A stretch of 64,000 nt of DNA. It comes from Candidatus Spiroplasma holothuricola. Lineage in GTDB: Bacteria; Bacillota_I; Bacilli_A; Mycoplasmatales; MT37. How positions within the stretch are numbered: position 1 is the stretch's first letter; each line of letters opens with the position of its first letter. The notes under the pieces were generated by a model. The model was not told the DNA's origin and did no database searches. It saw only the letters and a list, made by a program, of their open reading frames with translations. Below, in pieces: positions 3,792-50,901 of the stretch. The DNA lies in assembly GCA_002135175.2 (NCBI GenBank), contig CP022928.1:179805-243804 (forward strand), given 5' to 3'. The position numbers and the translations under genes are program-made.

Positions 3792-3947
3792 ATGGCCAGA
3801 GTAAAAATAACGTTACAGTGTCAAAATTGTAAAACTCGAAATTATTTCATGAGTAAAAACAAAAAACTTCATTCAGAAAAATTATTGTTAAAAAAATTTT
3901 GCCACAATTGTAGAAAAATTTTTCCACACTCTGAAAAAGAACTTTAA
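3792..3947 (+). CDS. rpmG: ribosomal protein L33
   Basis: A 51-aa ORF, too short for the track: MARVKITLQCQNCKTRNYFMSKNKK...FCHNCRKIFPHSEKEL. It has the two CxxC pairs typical of L33. Confidence 0.9.
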   Translation: MARVKITLQCQNCKTRNYFMSKNKKLHSEKLLLKKFCHNCRKIFPHSEKEL

Positions 3948-3958
3948 TTTTTTTCACT

Positions 3959-5434
3959 GTGAATTTTCTTTTTCCCTTTCTGTTTTTTCAGATCAAGACC
4001 AAAGTTAACTTATGAATTTCGCATTTTAGTGAAGATTCTTTTTCGTCAAATGAGAATACTCAAACTTCATCACCAAATGAAAACGAAGATTTTTCTGGAA
4101 AAATTAACGTCAACAAAAATAACAATTCTTCTAATAATTACTTATTAAATTTATTATCGGAGCGTTGATTTCGAATTGCATTTATTCTTATTCTTGTGAT
4201 TGTTGGGTTTTTATTACTCAACCTAATTGGTCCCCGAATTGCTCTTCTTTTCTTTACAATTTCGCCCTTGGTTATTGGTTATGGTTTGGTTTCAGCATTG
4301 CAACCACTTCAGCGTTTTTTTCAGCATTATGTTTCTCAGCGAACTGCCAAAATTGCTGCATCAAGTATCTTTCTGTTCATTATTTTGATCATCATTATTG
4401 GAATTTTTGTTGTCTTTTTTTTCGAATTAGAAACTCTTTATAACAGATTAATTAAAGCTGATGGAGATGAAGAAATTAATAAACTTTTACAAAAACTCAA
4501 TGGTGAAGGGAAGGATGGGATTAAGCTTTCTAATATTCATAAAATTGATTTCGTTCATAGTAGTAAGCAAGGAAGTTCATCAGAAGTTCACAAACTGACA
4601 ATATCATTGATTAATGGTGAAGATGAAATGGCTGAATATTCAGGAGAAAAGGTCGGAAGTTTATACACTTTAATTTTTTGATTGATTGATAGTGTTCCTA
4701 TACTCAAAAGCATTGGCATTAATTTAATTCGAACAGCCTACGGTTGAGGGCATACTGGTTACATTGAACGAGTTTTTTTGAATTATGCAATCGTTTTTGG
4801 ATTTGTTTATATAATTTTCTTCTCCTTAATCATCATGATGTTTGCTGTTTTTGAGCCACCACGAAATTTTTTTCGTCGAATTTGAAGTTTTTTAATTCAT
4901 GGTCAACCTTCTCAAATCCGAACAGAACTAGAATTTAAATTAAAAAAAAAATTAAAAGGATGATTGCGGGGATTATTTTTGGATCAATTGTATGTACTAA
5001 TTGGCACGGCCTTAGTCTTGCTTTTGATGGGCATTATTTTCCCCGAATCTAAGTTGTTGGGTAATGTAATTGTTTTGTCAATTATTGCGGCTTCATTTAA
5101 TCTAATTCCATACATTGGGCCATGAATTGGTGGTATTTTCATTGGAGGATTTGTTCTTAGCACTGTCGTTGAAACTGATGCCTCTCAATTTGTTTCATGA
5201 TTGCCATTTATTTTCACAATGATTGGCATTTTAATTATTCAAATCGGAGAATCAGCCCTGGTTGCACCCATTGTTTATTCGAATAATGTTCAATTAAGTC
5301 CAATTGCAATCATCATTCTTTTGTTGGTTTTTGGTGTCTTGTTCGGAATTTGATCAATGCCATTTGCAATTCCTGTTTTGTTAATTGCCCAAACAGTTTC
5401 GGAAGTTGTTTATAAGTGAAAATGAAAGCTTTAA
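3959..5434 (+). CDS. AI-2E / PerM (UPF0118) family transporter-like membrane protein
   Basis: Frame 2 is open from about 3959 to TAA 5432-5434, with 8+ in-frame TGA. It includes track ORF 4196-4681. It is multi-TM with the family motif NLIPYIGPWIGG. The start is uncertain: there is no in-frame ATG, and GTG 3959 is the first candidate. Confidence 0.65.
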
Positions 5435-6813
5435 CGCATCAAGAATTAAGAGCAAAATGATTCACATTTTGACAAAATCGAAAACATTTGGTTTTGCCAT
5501 CTGCTTCACTTGTGGCCGAGGACAATGGTTCATTGCTTTGGAATAATTCTGGTGTTGCTGGATTAAAACAATATTTTTTAGGGAATAAGAAACCTCCAGC
5601 ATCACGATTAACCAATATTCAAAAATCATTAAGAACAAGTGACTTGAGCTTAATTGGAATAACAAACCGCCATCTTAGTTTTTTCGAAATGATGGGTAAT
5701 TTTGCCATTGATGATTATGATCGTCGCCAAGCAATTTTATGAGCATGAGAATTTTTAACTAGTGTTCAAGAATTGAATATTGATCCTCAAAAAATCATTA
5801 TTGTTTATTTCAAAGAAGATCAAAAAACTTATCAAATTTTAAAAAATGATCTTAAATTAACTGATCAACAAATCGTTTCGGCCGGTCGAGAAACAAATTT
5901 TTGAGATTTAGGTGTTGGTCCTTGTGGTCCTAATCTTGAATTTTATTATGACTATGGTTCAGTTTTTGATGAGCAAAAACAAGGAATCAAGCTTTTGGAA
6001 AAGAACATTGAGAATAAACGTTATTTAGAAATTTGAAACATTGTTTTTTCGGAATTCATTAATGATGGCACCGGTAAATATCGACAATCTCCTACATCGA
6101 ATATTGATACGGGAGCCGGTTTGGAAAGAATATTGATGGTTTTGCAAAATAAACAAAACCCTTTTGAAACAGATTTGTTTGATTCAGCTCGAAAAAAATT
6201 GGAAAAGATATCAGGTGTTAATTATATTTCCTCACTACCTAATCAATGAAATTCAAAAATTTCTCAAAATAATTATTTTTTTCAAGTTATTCTTGATCAT
6301 ATTCGAGCCACAACCTTTATGCTTTCTGACCTATTAGCTTCAAATGAAAAAATTAATTTTCAAAAGGGTAGAGGATATATAATTCGAAAAATGATTCGGA
6401 CAGCAATAATGAAAACAAAGTTTTTGAATTCCAAACCTTTCATGATATCGACTTTAATTTCGTCATTTGTTGATTCGTTTCAACCCTTTTATCCAAACCT
6501 AGGCAAATACAAAAATACAATTGAACAGATTGTGATCAAGGAAGAAAATCAATTTCGATTACTCTTAAATCATTTAAAAATAAAGCAATTATTTGATAAA
6601 CCCCCACAATCACTTTCAGCACAGACGATTTTTTTACTAGTTACAAGTTTAGGATTCCCTTTAGAATTTATTGTGAACATTGCCCACCAAAAAAGTATTA
6701 AGTTAGATCTTGAGAATTTTCAAAAACTATGAACAAAGCACCAAAAACTTTCAGCTGATAAAAAAATAAAAAAAACATGAATTGAAAAACCAAAAAACTT
6801 TATTAAAAAATAA
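5422..6813 (+). CDS. alaS: alanyl-tRNA synthetase, catalytic plus tRNA-recognition part only (about 463 aa)
   Basis: ATG 5422 is in frame 1 with ORFs 5488-5742 and 6319-6732. I checked every codon of the gaps. Motifs: LWNNSGVAGLKQYFLG, RHLSFFEMMGNFAIDDY, GPCGPNLEFYYD, EIWNIVFSEF, DTGAGLERI, GRGYIIRKMIRTA, GFPLEF. It ends at TAA 6811-6813. Confidence 0.9.
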
Positions 6814-6964
6814 AATACCCCACAACTACGAAAAAAACTATCACAAAAGGTCAAGCATGATACAAGACTATTGACGAATTATTAAAAGAAGCCAAAGCAT
6901 GAATAAAAGAAGAAGAGAAAAAGCTGAAAAAATAAACTAAGTCTTTAAATTGATAATAATTATT

Positions 6965-7297
6965 ATGATAAATAATTTTTTATATAATCTTTGTGTCGTA
7001 TTTGCCAATGATAATGGTGATTACAGTACTGGGTTAGTCGTTGCTGTGGTTATTTTTTATCTTCTGCTTTTAATTGTGCTTATCGGTATCATATTTGGAT
7101 TGGGTTGTTATTTGACGGTGCAAGGATATAAACAAAAATCTGCCATTAAAACGGTTGTTGGTGTTTTTTTTACAGGCCTGTGATTTGGATTAATTTTAAT
7201 TTTCCTGTTAAAAGTGTGAGAGCAAAAACAACCTGATTTAATTAAAAATTCACAAACTAAAAGAAGAAAAATAAAAAAATCATTATCAAAAAAATAA
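6965..7297 (+). CDS. hypothetical small membrane protein
   Basis: Track ORF 6950-7183 extends through two TGA to TAA 7295-7297. It has two to three hydrophobic helices and a Lys-rich tail. The first ATG is at 6965. Confidence 0.45.
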
Positions 7298-7643: not shown

Positions 7644-8003
7644 ATGAAAACAAATTATCAAAAAAAACAAAAATTCAATCCATTGTTATCTCTTTTTTTT
7701 GTATTCTTCATACTTTTTTCTGTTTACTGTAGTTTGCTAATTCATAATCAATTTTTAGTATTTAATTCAATAGAAACCAAAATTAGAAATTCATCAAGTC
7801 CATCATTGCATGAATCACGAAAACAAGAATTGACTAAGGTTTTAGAAAGATTGCGATCAAATGGTGACATTAAAGATGCAATTGCTGACATTGATGAGCA
7901 ATTTTATACTCTCAAAGATTTTATAAATAAAGTTAATAACGATCAAAAATTTGCTGAAGGTGATTACGTGAAAAGCTTCTTAGATAAATTTAAAAAATTT
8001 TAA
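7644..8003 (+). CDS. hypothetical membrane-anchored protein
   Basis: An intact 119-aa ORF with one N-terminal TM helix followed by a charged, probably helical domain. No family recognised. Confidence 0.5.
   Translation: MKTNYQKKQKFNPLLSLFFVFFILFSVYCSLLIHNQFLVFNSIETKIRNSSSPSLHESRKQELTKVLERLRSNGDIKDAIADIDEQFYTLKDFINKVNNDQKFAEGDYVKSFLDKFKKF

Positions 8004-9774: not shown

Positions 9775-9775
<1 letters not shown>
8735..9775 (+). CDS. CPBP (CAAX/Abi) family intramembrane metalloprotease
   Basis: ATG 8735 is in frame 2 with ORFs 8855-9091 and 9524-9775, and the gap contains only TGA. It is multi-TM with the family motifs FEEIVFRF (EExxxR), FFATLHH (FxxxH) and HSIHNG (HxxxN). Confidence 0.8.
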
Positions 9776-12145
<2,370 letters not shown>

Positions 12146-12159
<14 letters not shown>

Positions 12160-15502: not shown

Positions 15503-16504
15503 ATGCATTCTTGTAAGGTTTTTTCCAACATCTTTTTTGGTCGTTCACCATCAATTCAAGACAAAATTCTCAAACAAATTAATGATGCTTCCATTGTGAT
15601 TTGTTTGTCCAAAAAGATACCTGATGGCAATGCTTTAGGTTCACAATTTGGTTTGAAAAGCTTTATTAAAGCAAATTGACTTGATAAAGAAGTTTATGCT
15701 CCCGGAAACGGGAATCCAAGCCTGAGTTTTTTCGGCACACCTGACAAAATCGATGATAGTAAATACAAAAATGCACTCGTGATTATTCTTGGTGTTCCAA
15801 CTAAAAACTTTTTAACAGTTGACTATGCTTTTTTAAAAGCCAACGCCAAATTCATTATTCGAATCGATCATCACCCCTTAACCATCCCTTTTGCTAATCT
15901 CGAATGAATTGATCCCACGTCGCCTTCAACGACTCAAATGTTAGCGATTTTAGTGGCTGGTCGAAAATATGTTTATCCTTCACTCATGGCTCGTAATTGA
16001 TTTGGTGGTCTTGTGACTGACACTGATCAATTAAATTATGGAATGATTGATAAACGAACCGGAAATGTATTACAATTTTTATTTGCCCAAAATTTTGATG
16101 TTCAAGAAATTTTACGAAAAATCAACAATCGTTCTTCAGAACGAGTGATGATTGAAAATTATGTATTACAAAATATTAACTTTCATAACAATTCAGGTCT
16201 GATTACTTGTACAATTCCTCATAAAATAGTGGCACAGGTACCACAACATTCATTGAATAATTTGATTGGAATTTTGTGAGGAGTGAGTAATGCCCAAATC
16301 ATTGCTTTTGTCACAATTGCCGAAGATCAACAAAATGCCATTGGCCAAATTCGAGCCATCAATGTTGTTCATGGTGTTGCTGAAGTCGCCCAAAAATACA
16401 ATGGGGGAGGTCATGATTGATCAGCTGGTGCTTATTTTTCAAGTGATCGAATTGATGATTTTTTTGCTGACTTAGAAAAACTTTTAATTCCTGATCAAAA
16501 TTAG
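15503..16504 (+). CDS. DHH-family phosphoesterase (NrnA-like)
   Basis: ATG 15503 is in frame 2 with ORF 16013-16279, and I checked the gaps. Motifs: PDGNALGS, RIDHHP (DHH), GGGHDW (DHHA1). Confidence 0.85.
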
Positions 16505-16583
16505 CTTTTTTGTCAGCTTTTTAGCCACTAATTTCTTCTTTTTTAACTGATGAATATGATAAAATTTTTAGATATCAATATTA

Positions 16584-16874
16584 ATGAAAAAAGTAGTTTT
16601 GCCTCTTTATCAGAAACAAATTTTGACTGGTCTTGTTGTCAAAAAAGTGCTTGATAAAACGGTTACTGTTGCTGTTGTCCGCAAATTTCGTCATCCTATT
16701 TATAAAAAAGTTATCCAAACAACAAAAAAATATTTAGTGGATGATCCAAAAAATGAAGCAAAAGAATCTGATCGAGTGAAAATTATTCATGTCCGACGAC
16801 TTTCTGCTCGCAAAAGATTTCGAGTTTTGAAAATTTTAAGCTCTCCTTCTCTTAACTCAACTGTTACAAAATAA
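16584..16874 (+). CDS. rpsQ: ribosomal protein S17
   Basis: An intact ORF: GLVVKKVLDKTVTVAVVRKFRHPIYKK... Confidence 0.95.
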   Translation: MKKVVLPLYQKQILTGLVVKKVLDKTVTVAVVRKFRHPIYKKVIQTTKKYLVDDPKNEAKESDRVKIIHVRRLSARKRFRVLKILSSPSLNSTVTK

Positions 16875-16877
16875 ATC

Positions 16878-17243
16878 ATGGTCAACCAAGAAACTAGATT
16901 AAAAGTAATGGATAATACGGGAGCAAAAGTTTTGTTAATGATTCGTAACCTTGCTTCTCGGAAAAGATATGCTCGTGTTGGGGATATCATTGTTGGAACA
17001 ATAAAAAGTGCTACCCCTTCAGGAATGGTTAAAAAAGGAGAAGTGGTAAAAGCAGTGATTATTCGAACAAAACGTTCCATTCATAGAAAAGATGGAACAG
17101 TGATTACATTTCCAGACAATGCTGTTGTTTTAATTAACAACAATCTGCAACCAAAAGGAACCCGAATTTTTGGTCCAGTTAGCTTTGAATTAAAAGCACG
17201 AAAATTTGACAAAATTGTTTCATTGGTTACAGAAGTTTTATAA
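16878..17243 (+). CDS. rplN: ribosomal protein L14
   Basis: An intact ORF: [17 protein letters not shown]... Confidence 0.97.
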
Positions 17244-28147: not shown

Positions 28148-29155
28148 ATGTCTGTACCGATCAACCATTTTGTTCCCCGAAATTCAGTTATTCACAATTT
28201 CGATCCACGACTCAAATTTTTGTCTTATTTGATTTTATTAACAATGATTTTTTTGTGACCAGCAAATTTTTTTCTTTATTTTTTTTATCTTTTTTTTTAC
28301 ATTTTCCTTTTCAAGTTAGCAAAACTTCAATTTCGGCATCTTCGACCAATTTTGTTTTCATTGTTTTTGGTTTTTATTTTTCTTTTTTTATTTAATTTAA
28401 TTAACATTAATCTTCCCGAACATGATCACGAACATGGTTTGTCCAATGAAACAGATTCTAAAATTGGACAAAGTGATTCTGAACATGATCATGATGATCA
28501 TGGCCATATTCATGAACATGGTCATGATGAACATTGGTTTACAGAATCTTTTCAATTGTGAATTATTAAATTTAATTGATCAGTGATTACCAGAACAATT
28601 TTTTATACATTAAGAATTTTCTTAGTTATTTTCCTTACTTTTATCTTTTCATCATCAACTTCTTCTTATGAAATTACATTTGCTATTTCGAGTTTGCTTT
28701 CACCATTAAAGTTGATTGGTTTTCCCGTGGTTATTTTTGCCACCATTATTTCTCTCACATTGCGATTAGTTCCCACTTTAGTTCAAGAGGGTAAAGTGAT
28801 TTTAGATGCACAATCATCACGAGGCTTAGACTTTCAAACCAGCAAATTTATTACTAAAATTAAGATTTCTATTGCCCTAATTATTCCATTGCTCGTCTCG
28901 ATTTTCAAAAAAGCTGGTGAGATGGCCAATGCCATGGAAAGTCGTGGTTATAATCCGAACAAAACTCGAACAACATATCAACAATTTGCCATTCGTCCAA
29001 TTGATTGATTTATTTTCTTGTTTATAATTTTGTTTTTAGTTTCGAATATTCTATTTATTTCATTAATCATGAGTAATCTGGAAGAGGGGGGCGTCTTTGA
29101 GGAATTTTTTCATCAAATTAATGAATCATTAGATTCACATGAACATGATGATTAA
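28148..29155 (+). CDS. ecfT: ECF transporter transmembrane component EcfT, with a His-rich insert
   Basis: ATG 28148 is in frame 2 with ORFs 28352-28561 and 28583-29008. It is multi-TM with the conserved coupling region ILDAQSSRGLDF and MESRGY. It sits directly after ecfA2. Confidence 0.85.
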
Positions 29156-29238
29156 TCAAAAAATCTTTGGTTAATATTAATTGTTTTTGTTTATGAATTG
29201 GAAAAAAGCCTTTATAGATATAATATTTAAGAATAGTG

Positions 29239-29676
29239 ATGACAAATTTAACACCAACCGTTAGTGCTTCCAACCATATTAAAAAATGATTATTATTTGA
29301 TGTTAGAGGATTACCTCTTGGTCGGGCAGCAAGTAAAATTTGTCGTTATTTAAGAGGCAAAGATAAGGTTTATTTTTCACCAAACATTAATTGTGGTGAT
29401 AATGTTGTGGTAATTAATAGTCAAGAAATTATTATGACTGGCAAAAAATGAACAGACAAAATTTATTATTCACACTCAGAATATCCCGGTGGATTAAAAA
29501 TGAAAAGTGCAAAATTTATTCATGACAAGGATCCAACCAAATTGATGCAAATGGCTATTCAAAGAATGCTCCCAAAAAATCGATTAGCCCGAACACAAAT
29601 GAGTTCATTGTACATTTATCCTCATGAAGAACATCCTCATCAGGGGCAAAAACCCATTGTTGTAAAGTTGGATTAA
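29239..29676 (+). CDS. rplM: ribosomal protein L13
   Basis: A 145-aa ORF with two in-frame TGA, absent from the track: WLLFDVRGLPLGRAASKICRYLRGK...YYSHSEYPGGLK. Confidence 0.9.
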
Positions 29677-29680
29677 AGAA

Positions 29681-30112
29681 ATGATAGCTTCCAAAATCAT
29701 TCGTGCTACTGGTCGACGTAAATCTTCGATTGCCCAAATCATGGTTCGTCCTGTATCCAAAAAAATCGAGTCGAACATCTCAATTTATCACCGTCATCAA
29801 AATCTTTCAAAAGCACTGTCATTAAACAAATTTTTCCCCAGCAAAATTTTTGTTCAATTAATCGAAAAACCATTAGTAGCCACAAAACTAGAAAATAAAT
29901 TCAACATAGTTCTCAAAGTTCATGGAGGAGGTTTTTCTGGGCAAGCCGGAGCAGCTCGTTTAGCACTTTCAAGAGCTTTATCCAAAATAAATGTTGATAA
30001 TCGTAAAATATTAAAAGCAAACGGGTTGTTGACACGTGATGCTAGAGTTAAAGAACGCCGAAAGCCAGGATTAAAAAAGGCCCGAAAAGCCCCACAATTC
30101 TCAAAAAGATAA
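29681..30112 (+). CDS. rpsI: ribosomal protein S9
   Basis: An intact ORF: GGGFSGQAGAARLALSRAL...TRDARVKERRKPGLKKARKAPQFSKR. Confidence 0.96.
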   Translation: MIASKIIRATGRRKSSIAQIMVRPVSKKIESNISIYHRHQNLSKALSLNKFFPSKIFVQLIEKPLVATKLENKFNIVLKVHGGGFSGQAGAARLALSRALSKINVDNRKILKANGLLTRDARVKERRKPGLKKARKAPQFSKR

Positions 30113-30115
30113 TTT

Positions 30116-30190
30116 GGGATTATAGCTTAGCGGCAAAGCACACGATTTATAATCGTGAGATCATGGGTTCGATCCCCATTAGTCCCACCA
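30116..30190 (+). tRNA. tRNA-Ile with genomic anticodon TAT (reads AUA)
   Basis: A manual fold fits: acceptor GGGATTA/TAGTCCC, D stem GCTT/AAGC, anticodon stem CACGA/TCGTG with loop TTTATAA (positions 34-36 = TAT), T arm ATGGG-TTCGATC-CCCAT, and an encoded CCA. Confidence 0.85.
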
Positions 30191-30207: not shown

Positions 30208-30282
30208 TGGAACCCGCCACCAGAATCGAACTGGTAACCTAATTTTTAGGAAAAATTTGTTCTACCATTGAACTAGACGGGC
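30208..30282 (-). tRNA. tRNA-Arg (anticodon CCT)
   Basis: The reverse complement folds as acceptor GCCCGTC/GGCGGGT, D arm GTTC-AATGGTA-GAAC, anticodon stem AATTT/AAATT with loop TTCCTAA, T arm ACCAG-TTCGATT-CTGGT, and CCA. The amino-acid identity is inferred from the anticodon only. Confidence 0.75.
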
Positions 30283-30884: not shown

Positions 30885-33428
30885 TTGAATAAAAATAATT
30901 TCGCCCCTAATTGAAAAAGGATTGGTGCCCGTTGTACTGATATTGGATTAAATATTATTTTTTTAATTATTGTCACAGTCATTTACAATTTAATTATTTT
31001 TGGTGAATTTCAAATTTTTGGCATACTTCAAGTAATCCAACAATTAATTCTTCTTTCACTTCAATTCATCATTTTTTTAATTTATTTTGTTGTGATTTCG
31101 ACACTCACCAAAGGGCAGACTTTGGGCAAAAAAATATTTTCTATTAGATTGATAACAGAAAATAAAAATAAAATTCCAATGCGAGTTTATTTTTTTCGAG
31201 AATTCTATATTCTTGTTTTGCCTTTGATAATTTCTTATTTATTGTTTATAATTTTCTCTACAATCTTTTCATCACCCTATCAATCCCAAAAGCTTGCTGC
31301 AAATTTTTTATTTTTTTGATTTTTTTTCTTATTTTTATTTCAAAAAATCAATAAAAATCATTGTTTATTTTATGATCGTTTTTTTCAAATTTTCGTTGTT
31401 AATGACAACAAAAAAATTGAAAAAGAAAAATTAAAAATTTTTAAAAATTTTTTTAAATCAACTTCTATGCCAACAAACACTGACAAAATTTTCGAAAAAT
31501 TAAACAAAGAACAAATGAAAGCCGTTGTGGCTTCTGATCAAAAAAACGCCTTGATCATTGCCGGTCCCGGAACTGGCAAGACCACAGTTTTGATTCACAA
31601 AATCATTCATTTAATTAAACACTATCGATTATTGCCTTGAAGAATTCTGGTGCTCACATTTACCAAAAAAGCTGCACTAAATGTTCGTGATCGACTCAAC
31701 AAAAAGATTAAATTGGATACTGATAAATACCAAATTTATACTTATCATGGTTTTTGTTACAGTTTTTTACTTGAAGAAATTAATTGAATAACGGAACTAA
31801 AAAATTTAGTAGTTATGGATGAAACGGATCAGAAAAACCTAGTGAAAAGCCTCATTATGGAAATCAGAGACCATCGAGAAAAAAAACTTGATGCAACAAC
31901 ATTAAAAACCGTTATTTCGTTTATCAATTTGAAAAACAGAAAACTTATTCAAAATAAAAAAAAATTCAGCAAATTATTCACAGAATACACAACTCTCAAT
32001 CAAGTTGATGATAAATTCATTGATTTTATTTGAACTATATCTTTAAAATATTCTGATTATAAAAAAAACCAAGGATTGATGGATTTTAATGATTTGTTGA
32101 TTGAAACTTACAATCTACTCAAAAATAATGTTAATTTATTGAAGAAATGACAAAAACGATTTGATGCAATTTTGATTGATGAGTTTCAAGACACCAGTTA
32201 TCTTCAGTACAGATTAATTGAATTGTTAACAAGTAAAGGAAAAGAAATCAAAACAACAGTGATTGGTGACCCTGATCAAACAATTTATGGATGAAGAGAT
32301 GCCAAAATTGAGTTCATTTTAAATTTTTGCAAAAATTTCTCACCGGCTGAAGAAATTAATTTAGTCAAAAACTATCGCTCAACAATAGGTATTGTCAATG
32401 TGGCCAAGCAGTTAATTCGAAATAATGAAAATCGTTCAAAAGGGGCACTCGAAGTTGTCAATTTTAATAATGAAAAAGTAAAAATATTTTATGAAAATGG
32501 TCGTTATACTCAAGCGAATACAATTGTTTCGGAAATAGAAGAATTAATTGAAGATGGAGCAAATCCCAAAAGTATTGCTATCCTTTATCGTTCACATTTT
32601 CTTTCTGGTGCATTAGAAAACTTTTTAGTCCAAAAAAAAATTAGTTATGTCATTTTCAAGGGTGTTCGATTTTTTTTGAGGTTAGAAATTAAGGATATGA
32701 TCAATTCACTTTCATTATTTTCCAAACCCAGAGATTTCAATGTTTCTTCAATTTTGCTATGAATAAAGGGATTAGGAGCTACTTCGGTGATCAAAATTCA
32801 AAAAATGGCCAAAGCTTACAATTTATCAATTTTTGAATTAATTGAAACCAATGATTTGTTAATGGTTAATACAAAAACAAGAACTGCAATTAAAAACTTG
32901 TTTGGACAAATTCCAAATTTTAAAAAATTAATGCAAAAAGAAGAAAGTTTATTAGCTTTTACGAAACAAATTTTTGATAATTTTTACAAACCATTTTTTG
33001 ACCAAAATTATTTGGATAAAGATTGAAGAATTAAACATATTGAAACATTTTTAGATATTGTTGATAACTTTGACAAAATGAATCTAAGATTATCATTAAA
33101 AGAAAAAATTCATCAATTTCTAAATGAAATCAAAATTAGCACTGATGCTGATTTCATCAAAGAAACAGATAGTATCAGCTTGATGACCATTCACAATGCC
33201 AAAGGACTTGAGTTTGATCATGTTTTTGTATTTGATGTCAGTCAAGAAATTTTCCCCACCAAAAAAAGTGAATTGGAAAACTTAGAAGAAGAAAGACGAA
33301 TTTTTTTTGTGGCCTTGACCCGAGCAAAGAAAAAATTATTTATTTTTACTAACATTTTTAATCAATCAATTTTCATTGATGAAATTGAGGATAGTGTTCA
33401 TATTGAAAAAAAGAAAGGTTATTTCTAA
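30885..33428 (+). CDS. RDD-domain membrane module fused in frame to a UvrD/PcrA-type SF1 helicase
   Basis: Frame 0 is continuous from TTG 30885 to TAA 33426-33428 (ORFs 31092-31319, 31815-32033, 32400-32762, 32787-33026, 33078-33428; I checked every gap codon and found only TGA). The N-terminal 190 aa is RDD-like (R.GARCTD..., KGQTLGKKIFSIRL, 3 TM). The helicase motifs are AGPGTGKT, DEFQDT, GDPDQTIYGWR, NYRS, TIHNAKGLEF and FFVALTRAKK. The internal ATG 31467 is an alternative helicase start. Confidence 0.8.
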
Positions 33429-33437
33429 AAAAGTTAA

Positions 33438-34106
33438 ATGGCTAAACAAAACTTTGTTCTTCCCCAAAATTTTAGTTGTCGTTCGTGTGATGCTAACGTT
33501 TCAAATACTGCTGATGTGCAATGAAAACAAACAACACTTGAGAATCAAGTGTTTTTTAGTACGAAATGTCAATTATGCAACCAAATGATTTATTTTTGAC
33601 AAAACAAACAAAACAATAATTTTTATTACATAAATAAAGTGAATATTGTTTTATATGAACCAGAAATTCCGGGTAACGTTGGGGCAATCATTCGACTGGC
33701 ATGTGCTTTTGATTTCACCGTTCATTTAATTGAACCATTTGGTTTTATTTATTCAGAAAAATGATTAGGACGGGCCAGTGCTGGTCATTTTCAATTAAAT
33801 AAACAAAAATTGTATTCTTCTTGAAATGAGTTTATTGAGAAAAATAAAGATGGAAAATTTATTTTGACTTCGTCTCATGCTCAAAAATATGTACATGATT
33901 TTGATTTTCGTCAAATAACCAATCCTATTTACATTGTTTTTGGTCGTGAATCTAGAGGTCTTCCCCATGAAATCACTTCCAATCCACAACACATCAATTT
34001 AAAAATTGCTCAAACCACACTTGCCAGTAGCATTAATCTTGCTCAAGCCGTTTCGATTTTTAGTTTTTTTTTACGTTCCCAATATGGAAATTTTGAGTTC
34101 TTTTAA
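33438..34106 (+). CDS. trmL: tRNA (cytidine/uridine-2'-O)-methyltransferase TrmL (SpoU family) with an N-terminal CxxC...CxxC extension
   Basis: ATG 33438 is in frame 0 with ORF 33864-34106. The TrmL core begins at GTG 33639 (VNIVLYEPEIPGNVGAIIRLACAF, GRESRGLP, SINLAQAVSIF). The upstream 67 codons are in frame with no stop. Confidence 0.8.
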
Positions 34107-38267: not shown

Positions 38268-39206
38268 CTATTTATTTGAGCTATTTTGTATTTGAAAATA
38301 ACCAAGAAAGCCGATCATTGCTGCATTATCTGTACAGTATTCTTTTGTAGGCACAAGCAATTTTATTTTTAGATTTTGTTTTAATTGCTTTCTCAAAATT
38401 TGATTAGCAGCAACACCACCACCCACAATTACTGTTTTTGCTGAGTATTTTGCACAAGCTAATTCAATTTTTGAAACAAGAAGATCAACAATTGTTTTTT
38501 GAAGAGAATAAGCAAAATCATGAATGTTCTGTTCATTTTTTTCGATTTTATTTCAAGTCTGTAAGGCATGAGTTTTTAAACCAGAAAAAGAAAAGTCAAG
38601 ATTTTTTTTGTTCTTATAGACATTTAATTTGTATTTTGATTTTCCTTTTTGAGCAAGTTTTTCAATTTTTGCTCCACAGGGATAACCAAGACCCATTTTT
38701 CTCCCAATCTTATCTAAAACTTCACCAGCGGCATCATCCATGGTTTCTCCCAAAACTTCAAAACTAAGATTTTTCTTCATGTAATACAGTTGGGTATGAC
38801 CACCACTAACCACTAGCCCAATTGCTGGTCATTCAATTTTTTCGTCATACTGTGCAATATAAAGATGTGCATGCAAATGATTAATTGGAATTAATTTTGC
38901 TTGAAAAAACAAAGCTAAAGTTTCAGCAAAACCTCGACCAACGTGAAGACAACCAATTAATCCAGGTTTGCTGGTGTAAGCAATATATTTAATTTTTTTC
39001 ATAATATCGGGATATTCATCAATAATTTCGTTCAACAAAATTGGCAGATTTTGGCTATGAAGTTCACTGGCAATGTTGGGGACAACTCCTCCGTATTTTT
39101 GAAAATATTTGATTTGTGTTCAAGTTCAACATTTAATAATTTTGTTATCTTTCATTAAAGCAACACTTGTTTCGTCACAACTTGTTTCAATTCCCAGTAT
39201 ATACAT
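38268..39206 (-). CDS. tsaD: tRNA N6-threonylcarbamoyladenosine synthase TsaD (Kae1/Gcp family)
   Basis: ORFs 38553-38813 and 38829-39038 plus flanks are in one frame. Motifs: ILGIETSCDETS, KPGLIGCLHVG, INHLHAH, VSGGHTQ, DDAAGEVLDK, GGGVAAN. Confidence 0.92.
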
Positions 39207-39280
39207 TGTTTTGTTTTCGATTTTTTTAATTCAAATGTTTTTCAAAATAAACTGAGCCGCGAAATGTTAAAATCATAGCT

Positions 39281-44736: not shown

Positions 44737-44823
44737 GCCTGGGTGGTGGAATGGTAGACACAACAGATTTAAGATCTGTCGAACTTTATGTTTGTGCCGG
44801 TTCGAGTCCGGTTCTGGGCACCA
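44737..44823 (+). tRNA. tRNA-Leu (anticodon TAA)
   Basis: Anticodon stem ACAGA/TCTGT with loop TTTAAGA, a long variable arm, T-loop TTCGAGT, CCA. It starts 1 nt after tRNA-Lys. Confidence 0.85.
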
Positions 44824-45173: not shown

Positions 45174-45947
45174 TTAAGAATATGGTTGTTTGATTGAACC
45201 ATGAAAATAGCAAATAATTTCTAGTTCAACATTTTTTGTCAATAGAAATTTATTTAAGTGAATTGGAAACAAATTGGTAAAAATTTCTTCACTGTGATGG
45301 CCCAACTCAATTGTCATCAATTCTTTTTCTGAAATTTGAATTAAATTTGATCATTTCAGTTCACCACAGATAAAAAGATCGATATTTTGATTACAAACGT
45401 TTTCAATTAAAAATCCGGAAGCCCCTGGTGCAATACCGATGGTTTTGACCATTTGTTTTTTGTTTCCAAAATAGTGAAAATTATTCGTTTTGAGTTTCTT
45501 TGAAACAATTTTTAAGATTTCTTCAAAAGTAAGTTGATCATTGAGTTCAAAACTTGTTAAAAGTTTCGTTTCATTATTTACTTTTTTTGGTGAAAAAAGG
45601 AAATCAGCAAGATCTTGCTTGAGGTACATATCATCATAATTTGTGTGTAATGAGATTAACCCAATTTGATTTTTTCGTAATAAGTAATATTTCAGTTTCT
45701 TTTCAGGATTTCTTCTTGCCTTAATTGGTCCTCCTCACAAAAAAGGATGGTGTGTAATGATTAAATCAATTTTTTCATCAATTGCTTTTTGAATGACTGG
45801 GCTGGTGCAGTCAAGTGTGATCAGAATTTTTTTGATCATTTTTTCATTATTCATTGGTACCTGAACACCAGAATAATCGTCTTTTAAACAATTGTTTTTT
45901 GGACAAAAAAGTTCTAATATTTTTTTGATTTCACCAAAACTAATCAT
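45174..45947 (-). CDS. NIF3-family dinuclear metal-centre protein (YqfO/YbgI-like)
   Basis: ORFs 45351-45629 and 45735-45947 plus a tail are in one frame. Stop TAA 45174-45176 abuts the prp ATG. Motifs: DLIITHHPFL, SLHTNYD, GHHSEE. Confidence 0.8.
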
Positions 45948-46599
45948 GTTTTAAAACTGTTTGAATTACATCAATTTCATCAAAAATAATTTTTGTTCTT
46001 AGGTTGTCTGGAACTTCGTTAATAATATCTTTTTTAAATTTTAACTGTTCAGTTCAATACTTTTTAAAAACTGGATCTTGTTCATGTCTTTGATAAACTC
46101 CAAACATTAAATCAAGATTATTCAGCACTTTTTTACCTTGATCTTTAGAAACGAAAATGGTGTGATAGTAATGATTATTTTCAAAAACAATTGTTTCTTT
46201 CAGAATAAAATATCTTTTTTCTTTTATTCATTTACGAATTAAGATCGGATTTTCTTTTGCTTGAAAGATATAGGTTTTTTTTCTTCAATCATTCAACTTC
46301 AAAATTTGAAGGATTTTGTGATTACCAAGGCCTGCTAGTACACAAATATCAATTTCTTCGAGAGGAATGGGATTAAATCCATAGCCTCTCTTTAGTGTTA
46401 TTTTTGTTTCAGAAGAAACTTTTGTTTTTAAAGCATTAATAGCAACTTCAGATAAATCGATGGCAAAAATTTTCATTTCAGGTCTTTTTTCGGCAATAAA
46501 TAAAGGTAAATGTCCATGATCTGTACCAATATCGGCCAATACTTTACAATTAAGATCATTCAATATTCACTCAGCAATTTTTAAAAGCCTATTTTTCAC
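45940..46599 (-). CDS. trmK: tRNA (adenine22-N1)-methyltransferase TrmK-like (YqfN family)
   Basis: ORF 46285-46563 extends both ways through TGA, and I checked the gaps. Motifs: ADIGTDHGHLP, FAIDLSE. It has the conserved yqfN-yqfO style adjacency to the NIF3 gene. The GTG 46599 start is a guess. Confidence 0.7.
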
Positions 46600-50814: not shown

Positions 50815-50901
50815 GCCCGTGTGGTGAAATCGGTATACACGATAGACTCAAAATCTATTAGAAGCAATTCTGTGTCAGTTCGAGTCTGACCATGGGCACC
50901 A
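50815..50901 (+). tRNA. tRNA-Leu (anticodon CAA)
   Basis: Acceptor GCCCGTG/CATGGGC, anticodon stem ATAGA/TCTAT with loop CTCAAAA, a long variable arm, T-loop TTCGAGT, CCA. Confidence 0.85.

Follow-up and report, generated by a model that had tools for sequence, protein, structure and literature searches.

How can AUA be read as isoleucine, and AUG not, by a bacterium whose tRNA does not receive lysidine? In the canonical system this task is performed by tRNA-Ile2, which is encoded with C34 and converted by TilS (CAU to LAU), so that AUA is read as Ile without AUG. [quoted passage not shown] The analysis indicates that it very probably encodes a functional AUA-decoding tRNA-Ile of this tilS-less organism, which acts independently of lysidine through its genomic UAU anticodon. 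AUA decoding without lysidine had been proposed in an earlier note on this DNA, and the proposal is supported by the TAT triplet, the Ile-like body of the tRNA, the Ile-like use of ATA and the published absence of tilS.

The host genome

'Ca. S. holothuricola' lives as a symbiont in the gut of a hadal sea cucumber and has a 424-kb genome composed of two chromosomes (143,947 and 280,592 bp) and a G+C content of 29.6% (Wang et al., 2018; NAR 46:2197; PMC5861454). The GC content of the window averages ~29.7%, its open reading frames are fragmented under translation table 11 and become long and orderly under table 4, and TGA codons stand mostly opposite Trp in homologues, which together point to a mollicute-type genome. 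By every available criterion the gene is the same as the tRNA-Ile(UAU) gene published for this organism (Wang et al., 2018; PMC5861454), and the window shares with the published genome its GC content (29.6–29.7%), TGA read as Trp, the UAA and CAA tRNAs for Leu, tRNA-Arg(CCU), tsaD and trmK. The earlier note had supposed that the DNA comes either from the Mycoplasma mobile lineage or from a further example of the same arrangement; it is the latter that stands, since the source is 'Ca. S. holothuricola'.

Judged from its proteins, the lineage is extremely isolated. In a collection of 5.8 billion proteins RpsI clusters with no other sequence, and its best match is an RpsI of only ~51% identity, so no close relative is at hand for synteny or covariation. 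No tRNA-Ile(TAT) gene follows rpsI in any of the relatives among the matches listed, which come from Actinomycetota and metagenome-assembled genomes of Bacilli (RpsI 42–57% identical). A search of metagenomes with CACGATTTATAATCGTGAG, the sequence of the anticodon arm, likewise yielded no contig bearing a tRNA with this arm: three matches were obtained, and these were rejected as chance matches, as ARAGORN finds no tRNA in the contigs; the one contig of the three that was profiled has a GC content of 52–55%.

The tRNA-Ile(UAU) gene and its anticodon

The gene (Table 1; sequence GGGATTATAGCTTAGCGGCAAAGCACACGATTTATAATCGTGAGATCATGGGTTCGATCCCCATTAGTCCCACCA) is called by ARAGORN as tRNA-Ile(tat). 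The Rfam tRNA model RF00005 was matched along its whole length (positions 1–71 of 71, over 30116–30187) with 72.6 bits (gathering score 29; E = 6e-14), and no non-canonical pairs were flagged in the alignment. Both ARAGORN and the covariance model place the TAT anticodon (positions 34–36) at 30148–30150, within a 7-nt loop TTTATAA (UUUAUAA in the RNA) at 30146–30152. The clean cloverleaf with TAT at 34–36, as described in the earlier note, is thus recovered by both approaches, and the covariance-model fold, through which a different triplet could have come to occupy these positions, still gives UAU. The thermodynamic minimum free energy (MFE) structure is likewise a cloverleaf (−22.2 kcal/mol, z = −2.8, equalled by 1 of 200 shuffles). 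The discriminator base is A73 and the 3′ CCA is present in the gene. The tRNA-Ile(TAT) gene is confirmed as real, well beyond chance.

Table 1. Features of the 64-kb window discussed in the text (positions are those of the window).
Feature	Position	Strand	Basis and remarks
rplM	29236-29676	+	table-4 ORF
rpsI	29681-30112	+	table-4 ORF; Pfam PF00380
tRNA-Ile(UAU) gene	30116-30190	+	ARAGORN, Rfam RF00005, cloverleaf MFE fold; nearest relatives are tRNA-Ile(GAU) genes
tRNA-Arg(CCU)	30208-30282	-	ARAGORN and Rfam; convergent with tRNA-Ile(UAU), 17 nt away
TrmL-like SPOUT methyltransferase (wobble 2'-O-methylase homologue)	33438-34106	+	Pfam SpoU_methylase, 99.6 bits; NCBIfam TIGR00185
tsaD, t6A37 synthase subunit	38268-39245	-	NCBIfam TIGR03723, 363.7 bits (cut-off 296.1)
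tRNA-Leu(UAA) and tRNA-Leu(CAA)	44737-44823 and 50815-50901		ARAGORN
TrmK (m1A22) family methyltransferase	45940-46599	-	Pfam PF04816, 116.7 bits (cut-off 27)
ValRS, class I synthetase, 852 aa	51495-54053	-	

Isoleucine identity and possible origin of the tRNA

In pairwise comparison with tRNA references that include those of E. coli and B. subtilis, the top identities of tRNA-Ile(UAU) are those to tRNA-Ile(GAU) sequences (64–71%). When 50,697 phage genomes were searched by BLAST, 19 matches were obtained, 13 of them annotated as tRNA-Ile, and the one in Ro1 is Ile(gat). As read from its sequence, the tRNA carries A73, A35, U36, A37, A38, U12-A23 and C29-G41, all of them identity elements of E. 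coli tRNA-Ile, as reported by Nureki and co-workers in 1994. The pair 4-69 is A-U, where the E. coli counterpart has C-G. The acceptor pair G3-C70 is of the Ile type and not of the Met type by the criterion of Silva et al., in which G3-C70 discriminates Ile from Met (Silva et al., 2006, NAR). The body of tRNA-Ile(UAU) is Ile-like, as judged by a similarity test that is not a formal isotype score.

The same comparisons bear on the origin of the gene. Its GAU-like body parallels a remark that Silva et al. made on the M. mobile tRNA, and it differs from what would be expected under the model of Taniguchi et al., in which a C-to-T change converts tRNA-Ile(CAT). Two candidate origins may thus be named, from tRNA-Ile(CAU) via a C-to-T change or from tRNA-Ile(GAU) via a G-to-T change, and they are listed here without ranking.

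Genomic context of the gene

Only 3 nt separate the stop codon of rpsI from the start of the tRNA gene. The scan around the gene, whose promoter and terminator hits are no better than those in shuffled sequences, found neither a promoter-like site nor a terminator-like site on the + strand within this gap, and the best promoter-like site lies upstream of rplM (29001–29028). Given the short gap and the lack of such sites between the genes, co-transcription with rplM and rpsI is the simplest reading, and tRNA-Ile(UAU) probably shares a transcript with this ribosomal-protein operon, from which it would then be trimmed to its encoded CCA end. Sparse small-RNA data did not establish expression of tRNA-Ile(UAU) in the study of Wang et al. 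(2018; PMC5861454).

Several further features of the window may be recorded. The anticodon CCU of the neighbouring tRNA-Arg is a rare one of this genome and belongs to the C34 tRNAs highlighted by Wang et al. (2018; PMC5861454), who found both U34 and C34 tRNAs for NNR codons. Both Leu tRNAs, with UAA and CAA, and tRNA-Arg(CCU) are all present in this reduced genome of 29.7% GC, and 3′ CCA is encoded in 11 of the 11 tRNA genes of the window. TTG (27 per 1000 codons) is far from rare when compared with TTA (42 per 1000), and AGG, CAG and GAG are rare. At 15503–17243, rplN (16878) opens a ribosomal-protein cluster right after gatB and a gene for a DHH/DHHA1 phosphoesterase; the part of the S10 operon that normally precedes rplN (rpsJ to rpsQ) is missing there, so that this genome has a split version of the conserved S10-spc superoperon. 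A PcrA/UvrD-type helicase (30885–33428, + strand; UvrD-helicase and UvrD_C domains) is fused at its N terminus to a membrane domain of the RDD family (Pfam PF06271, 48 bits), and this combination is an unusual architecture for a replication or repair helicase.

Proposed course of AUA decoding

In the lysidine-independent reading, tilS has been lost, the lysidine pathway is missing, and AUA is therefore decoded with a genomic UAU anticodon. The codon would be decoded by Watson-Crick pairing of U34 with A3, and a separate tRNA-Ile(GAU), encoded elsewhere in the genome, presumably decodes AUU and AUC. As a tRNA that reads ANN codons, tRNA-Ile(UAU) is expected to bear t6A at A37, and this modification would be put in place by TsaBDE: tsaD lies in the window, and tsaBDE is reported for the genome (Wang et al., 2018; PMC5861454).

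Charging would fall to the organism's own IleRS, which must accept U34 as the M. mobile enzyme does via Arg865. This residue is the counterpart of W905 in E. coli IleRS and of W890 in the S. aureus enzyme, and an enzyme adapted to U34 would have Arg or Lys in place of this Trp. The earlier note had pointed to M. mobile as a characterised case without tilS and with an adapted IleRS, and this is borne out by the work of Taniguchi et al. (2013, NAR), who showed that tRNA-Ile2 of M. mobile has an unmodified UAU anticodon, that it is recognized via Arg865 of IleRS, and that the ribosome rejects AUG. In 'Ca. S. holothuricola', misreading of AUG would be held down by competition from tRNA-Met, by properties of the ribosome, or by both, as in M. 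mobile. The gene encodes T34, and the window holds neither a tRNA with a CAT anticodon nor a PP-loop enzyme. Lysidine cannot be what keeps the tRNA from reading AUG. The components that would act here were sought in the window as well: ileS was not found, the sole large class I synthetase being ValRS, and the 16S rRNA and rpsL genes lie outside these 64 kb.

Another synthetase of the window deserves a separate mention. The alanyl-tRNA synthetase encoded at 5416–6813 (+ strand) has 465 amino acids and matches the Pfam tRNA-synt_2c profile at positions 1–437 of 552, i.e., the catalytic domain alone; the editing domain (tRNA_SAD) and the C-terminal DHHA1 domain are both absent. The open reading frames that follow (6950–7297 and 7644–8003) encode, by their appearance, small membrane proteins or unknowns. 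The product could be a naturally small AlaRS (mini-AlaRS) that lacks the editing function.

A TrmL homologue and the state of position 34

The alternative that survives best holds that U34 is not bare, and that a modification, e.g., Um34 made by a TrmL homologue, or some other chemistry, restricts the tRNA to AUA over AUG. What brings this to the fore is a well-conserved TrmL-like SPOUT methylase, encoded 3.2 kb downstream of the tRNA gene and the sole candidate modifier of position 34 noticed in the window. TrmL (TIGR00185) is its best NCBIfam family, matched over positions 2–147 of 154 with 108 bits, short of the 190.6 that an equivalog requires. In the PDB, the 17 best matches of the protein are without exception of the TrmL type (top match 7e3t, E = 6.5e-31), 14 of them being deposited as tRNA (cytidine(34)-2′-O)-methyltransferase, and all three SPOUT motifs align. 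The protein also has a Cys-rich N-terminal extension of ~65 amino acids (CxxC...CxxC), to which no Pfam family was matched. Wang et al. (2018; PMC5861454) name no gene for position-34 modification, so that this homologue apparently escaped notice; its presence is a difference between the window and the published account.

As this enzyme is encoded, U34 may be methylated at its ribose. The loop UUUAUAA of tRNA-Ile(UAU) differs from that of the window's tRNA-Leu(UAA), UUUAAGA, at positions 36 and 37 only, and marks of the Um type would be invisible in the data of Wang et al. (2018; PMC5861454), as the authors concede. However, the known substrates of TrmL, tRNA-Leu(CAA) and tRNA-Leu(UAA), are both encoded in the window; they are the expected substrates of the homologue and are enough to account for retention of its gene. 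Moreover, the anticodon of M. mobile tRNA-Ile(UAU) was found unmodified by mass spectrometry, the score of the homologue lies under the NCBI equivalog cut-off, and the link from the enzyme to tRNA-Ile is speculative. A modified U34 is therefore considered unlikely. Its specific form, in which the TrmL homologue may 2′-O-methylate wobble pyrimidines including U34 of tRNA-Ile(UAU), and Um34 favours AUA over AUG, is somewhat less likely again.

Other modification genes of this organism have been surveyed. Wang et al. (2018; PMC5861454) list trmD and possibly trmK, and report mnmE, mnmG and gidA as missing. Their own trmK call was deemed a likely false positive, whereas the TrmK-family protein of the window clears the Pfam cut-off by a wide distance (Table 1); its NCBIfam matches are weak and point to a generic methyltransferase.

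Search for tilS and a tRNA with a CAT anticodon

That both systems can be present side by side is documented by Lactobacillus plantarum and L. casei, the two lactobacilli in which tRNA-Ile(UAU) occurs together with tilS (Taniguchi et al., 2013). One may ask if tRNA-Ile(UAU) of 'Ca. S. holothuricola' is likewise a redundant or accessory tRNA beside a retained tRNA-Ile2(CAU)/TilS pathway, all the more as our own inspection covered 15% of the genome. The earlier note had suggested a search for tilS and for a tRNA with a CAT anticodon, and neither is present in the 64-kb window (of 424 kb): ARAGORN found no tRNA with CAT there, and no SGGxDS PP-loop motif of the TilS type occurs in any of the six table-4 frames. 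Genome-wide, the evidence that tilS and tRNA-Ile(CAU) are absent is the complete-genome analysis of Wang et al. (2018; PMC5861454), who reported that the organism is without tilS, has tRNA-Ile(UAU) and resembles M. mobile in this, and that ATG is served only by the initiator and elongator Met tRNAs. Two systems are also unlikely to persist in a 424-kb genome, and a redundant role is very improbable.

Use and meaning of the AUA codon

ATA makes up 223 of the 1,934 Ile codons in the genes of the window (11.5%; 11.9 per 1000 codons) and is found in 58 of the 62 open reading frames of at least 100 amino acids. Its visible use in rpmG (3792–3947), ligA (9775–12159) and the EcfT region (ecfT, 28148–29155), to which the earlier note had drawn attention, amounts to one, three and one codons, respectively. 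The A/T third-base ratio of ATA (0.16, as compared with 0.27–1.37 in the other boxes) makes it the most avoided of the A-ending codons, which fits a single weak decoder and is no proof of function.

The meaning of the codon was approached by alignment of the window proteins with homologues from 80 fetched loci. Opposite ATA, the homologues have V (27%), I (23%), A (14%) and L (11%), with more than half of these counts coming from three RpsI positions across 80 homologues. The profile opposite ATT is similar (V 29, I 27, L 13), as is that of ATC, and the residues opposite ATG are M (20%) and L (20%). Met is the majority residue at no ATA position of the alignments, nor is it among the six commonest residues aligned to ATA, each of which accounts for at least 4%. 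ATA is thus in regular use with an Ile-like meaning. Reassignment of AUA, e.g., to Met as in many mitochondria, with the UAU tRNA charged with a non-Ile amino acid, is hardly credible: a UAU anticodon is able to pair with both AUA and AUG, and the genome is already off the standard code at TGA, but the V/I/L/A residues aligned to ATA mirror those of ATT and ATC while ATG aligns with M and L, and the tRNA is of the Ile type in both its body and its acceptor stem.

Comparison with known systems

The lysidine-independent decoding proposed for 'Ca. S. holothuricola' resembles that of M. mobile, whose tRNA-Ile(UAU) gene was noted by Silva et al. (2006, NAR). Both organisms belong to the mollicutes, translate TGA as Trp, encode the TAT anticodon in the genome, are without tilS, use AUA genome-wide, and have a tRNA body nearest to tRNA-Ile(GAU). 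They differ in lineage, which is Spiroplasma/Entomoplasmatales here and hominis-group Mycoplasma in M. mobile, so the origin was presumably independent. They differ also in that M. mobile has kept mnmE, mnmG and mnmA, which are reportedly missing from 'Ca. S. holothuricola'.

The hemoplasmas (M. haemofelis and M. suis) offer a further likeness, being uncultured, genome-reduced mollicutes in which tilS was lost and a compensating T34 is present in tRNA-Ile; they form, however, another clade, and the residue of their own IleRS that contacts the wobble base is Lys or Leu. L. plantarum and L. casei share a Firmicutes-derived ancestry and a genomic TAT tRNA-Ile, but they retain tilS, which 'Ca. S. 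holothuricola' reportedly does not, so that AUA decoding is redundant in these lactobacilli. Genomic UAU tRNAs for Ile had been called rare in the earlier note, which overstates the case: by 2013 nine bacterial species without tilS, in three clades, and 371 metagenomic tDNA-Ile(TAT) sequences had been collected (Taniguchi et al., 2013), as had the two lactobacilli, and the hemoplasmas provide a second case among mollicutes.

Concluding remarks

The combination of tRNA-Ile(UAU) and tilS loss in 'Ca. S. holothuricola' is already published. The locus itself is nothing new, since the report of this gene dates from 2018 and the underlying principle had been demonstrated biochemically in M. mobile in 2013. 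The remaining value of the analysis lies in a probably independent case in the Spiroplasma lineage and in the presence of the TrmL homologue, which qualifies the published claim that the organism dispensed with position-34 modification. If U34 were indeed methylated, Um34 would be a solution unlike the bare U34 and specialised ribosome of M. mobile; that the published picture of a genome without such modification is incomplete in this respect seems to us unlikely, to much the same degree as the methylation itself. Decoding of AUA without lysidine shows that the otherwise essential TilS can be bypassed when a single base of a tRNA gene changes and IleRS and the ribosome are co-adapted, and such a bypass bears on theories of the evolution of the genetic code and on the design of minimal genomes.
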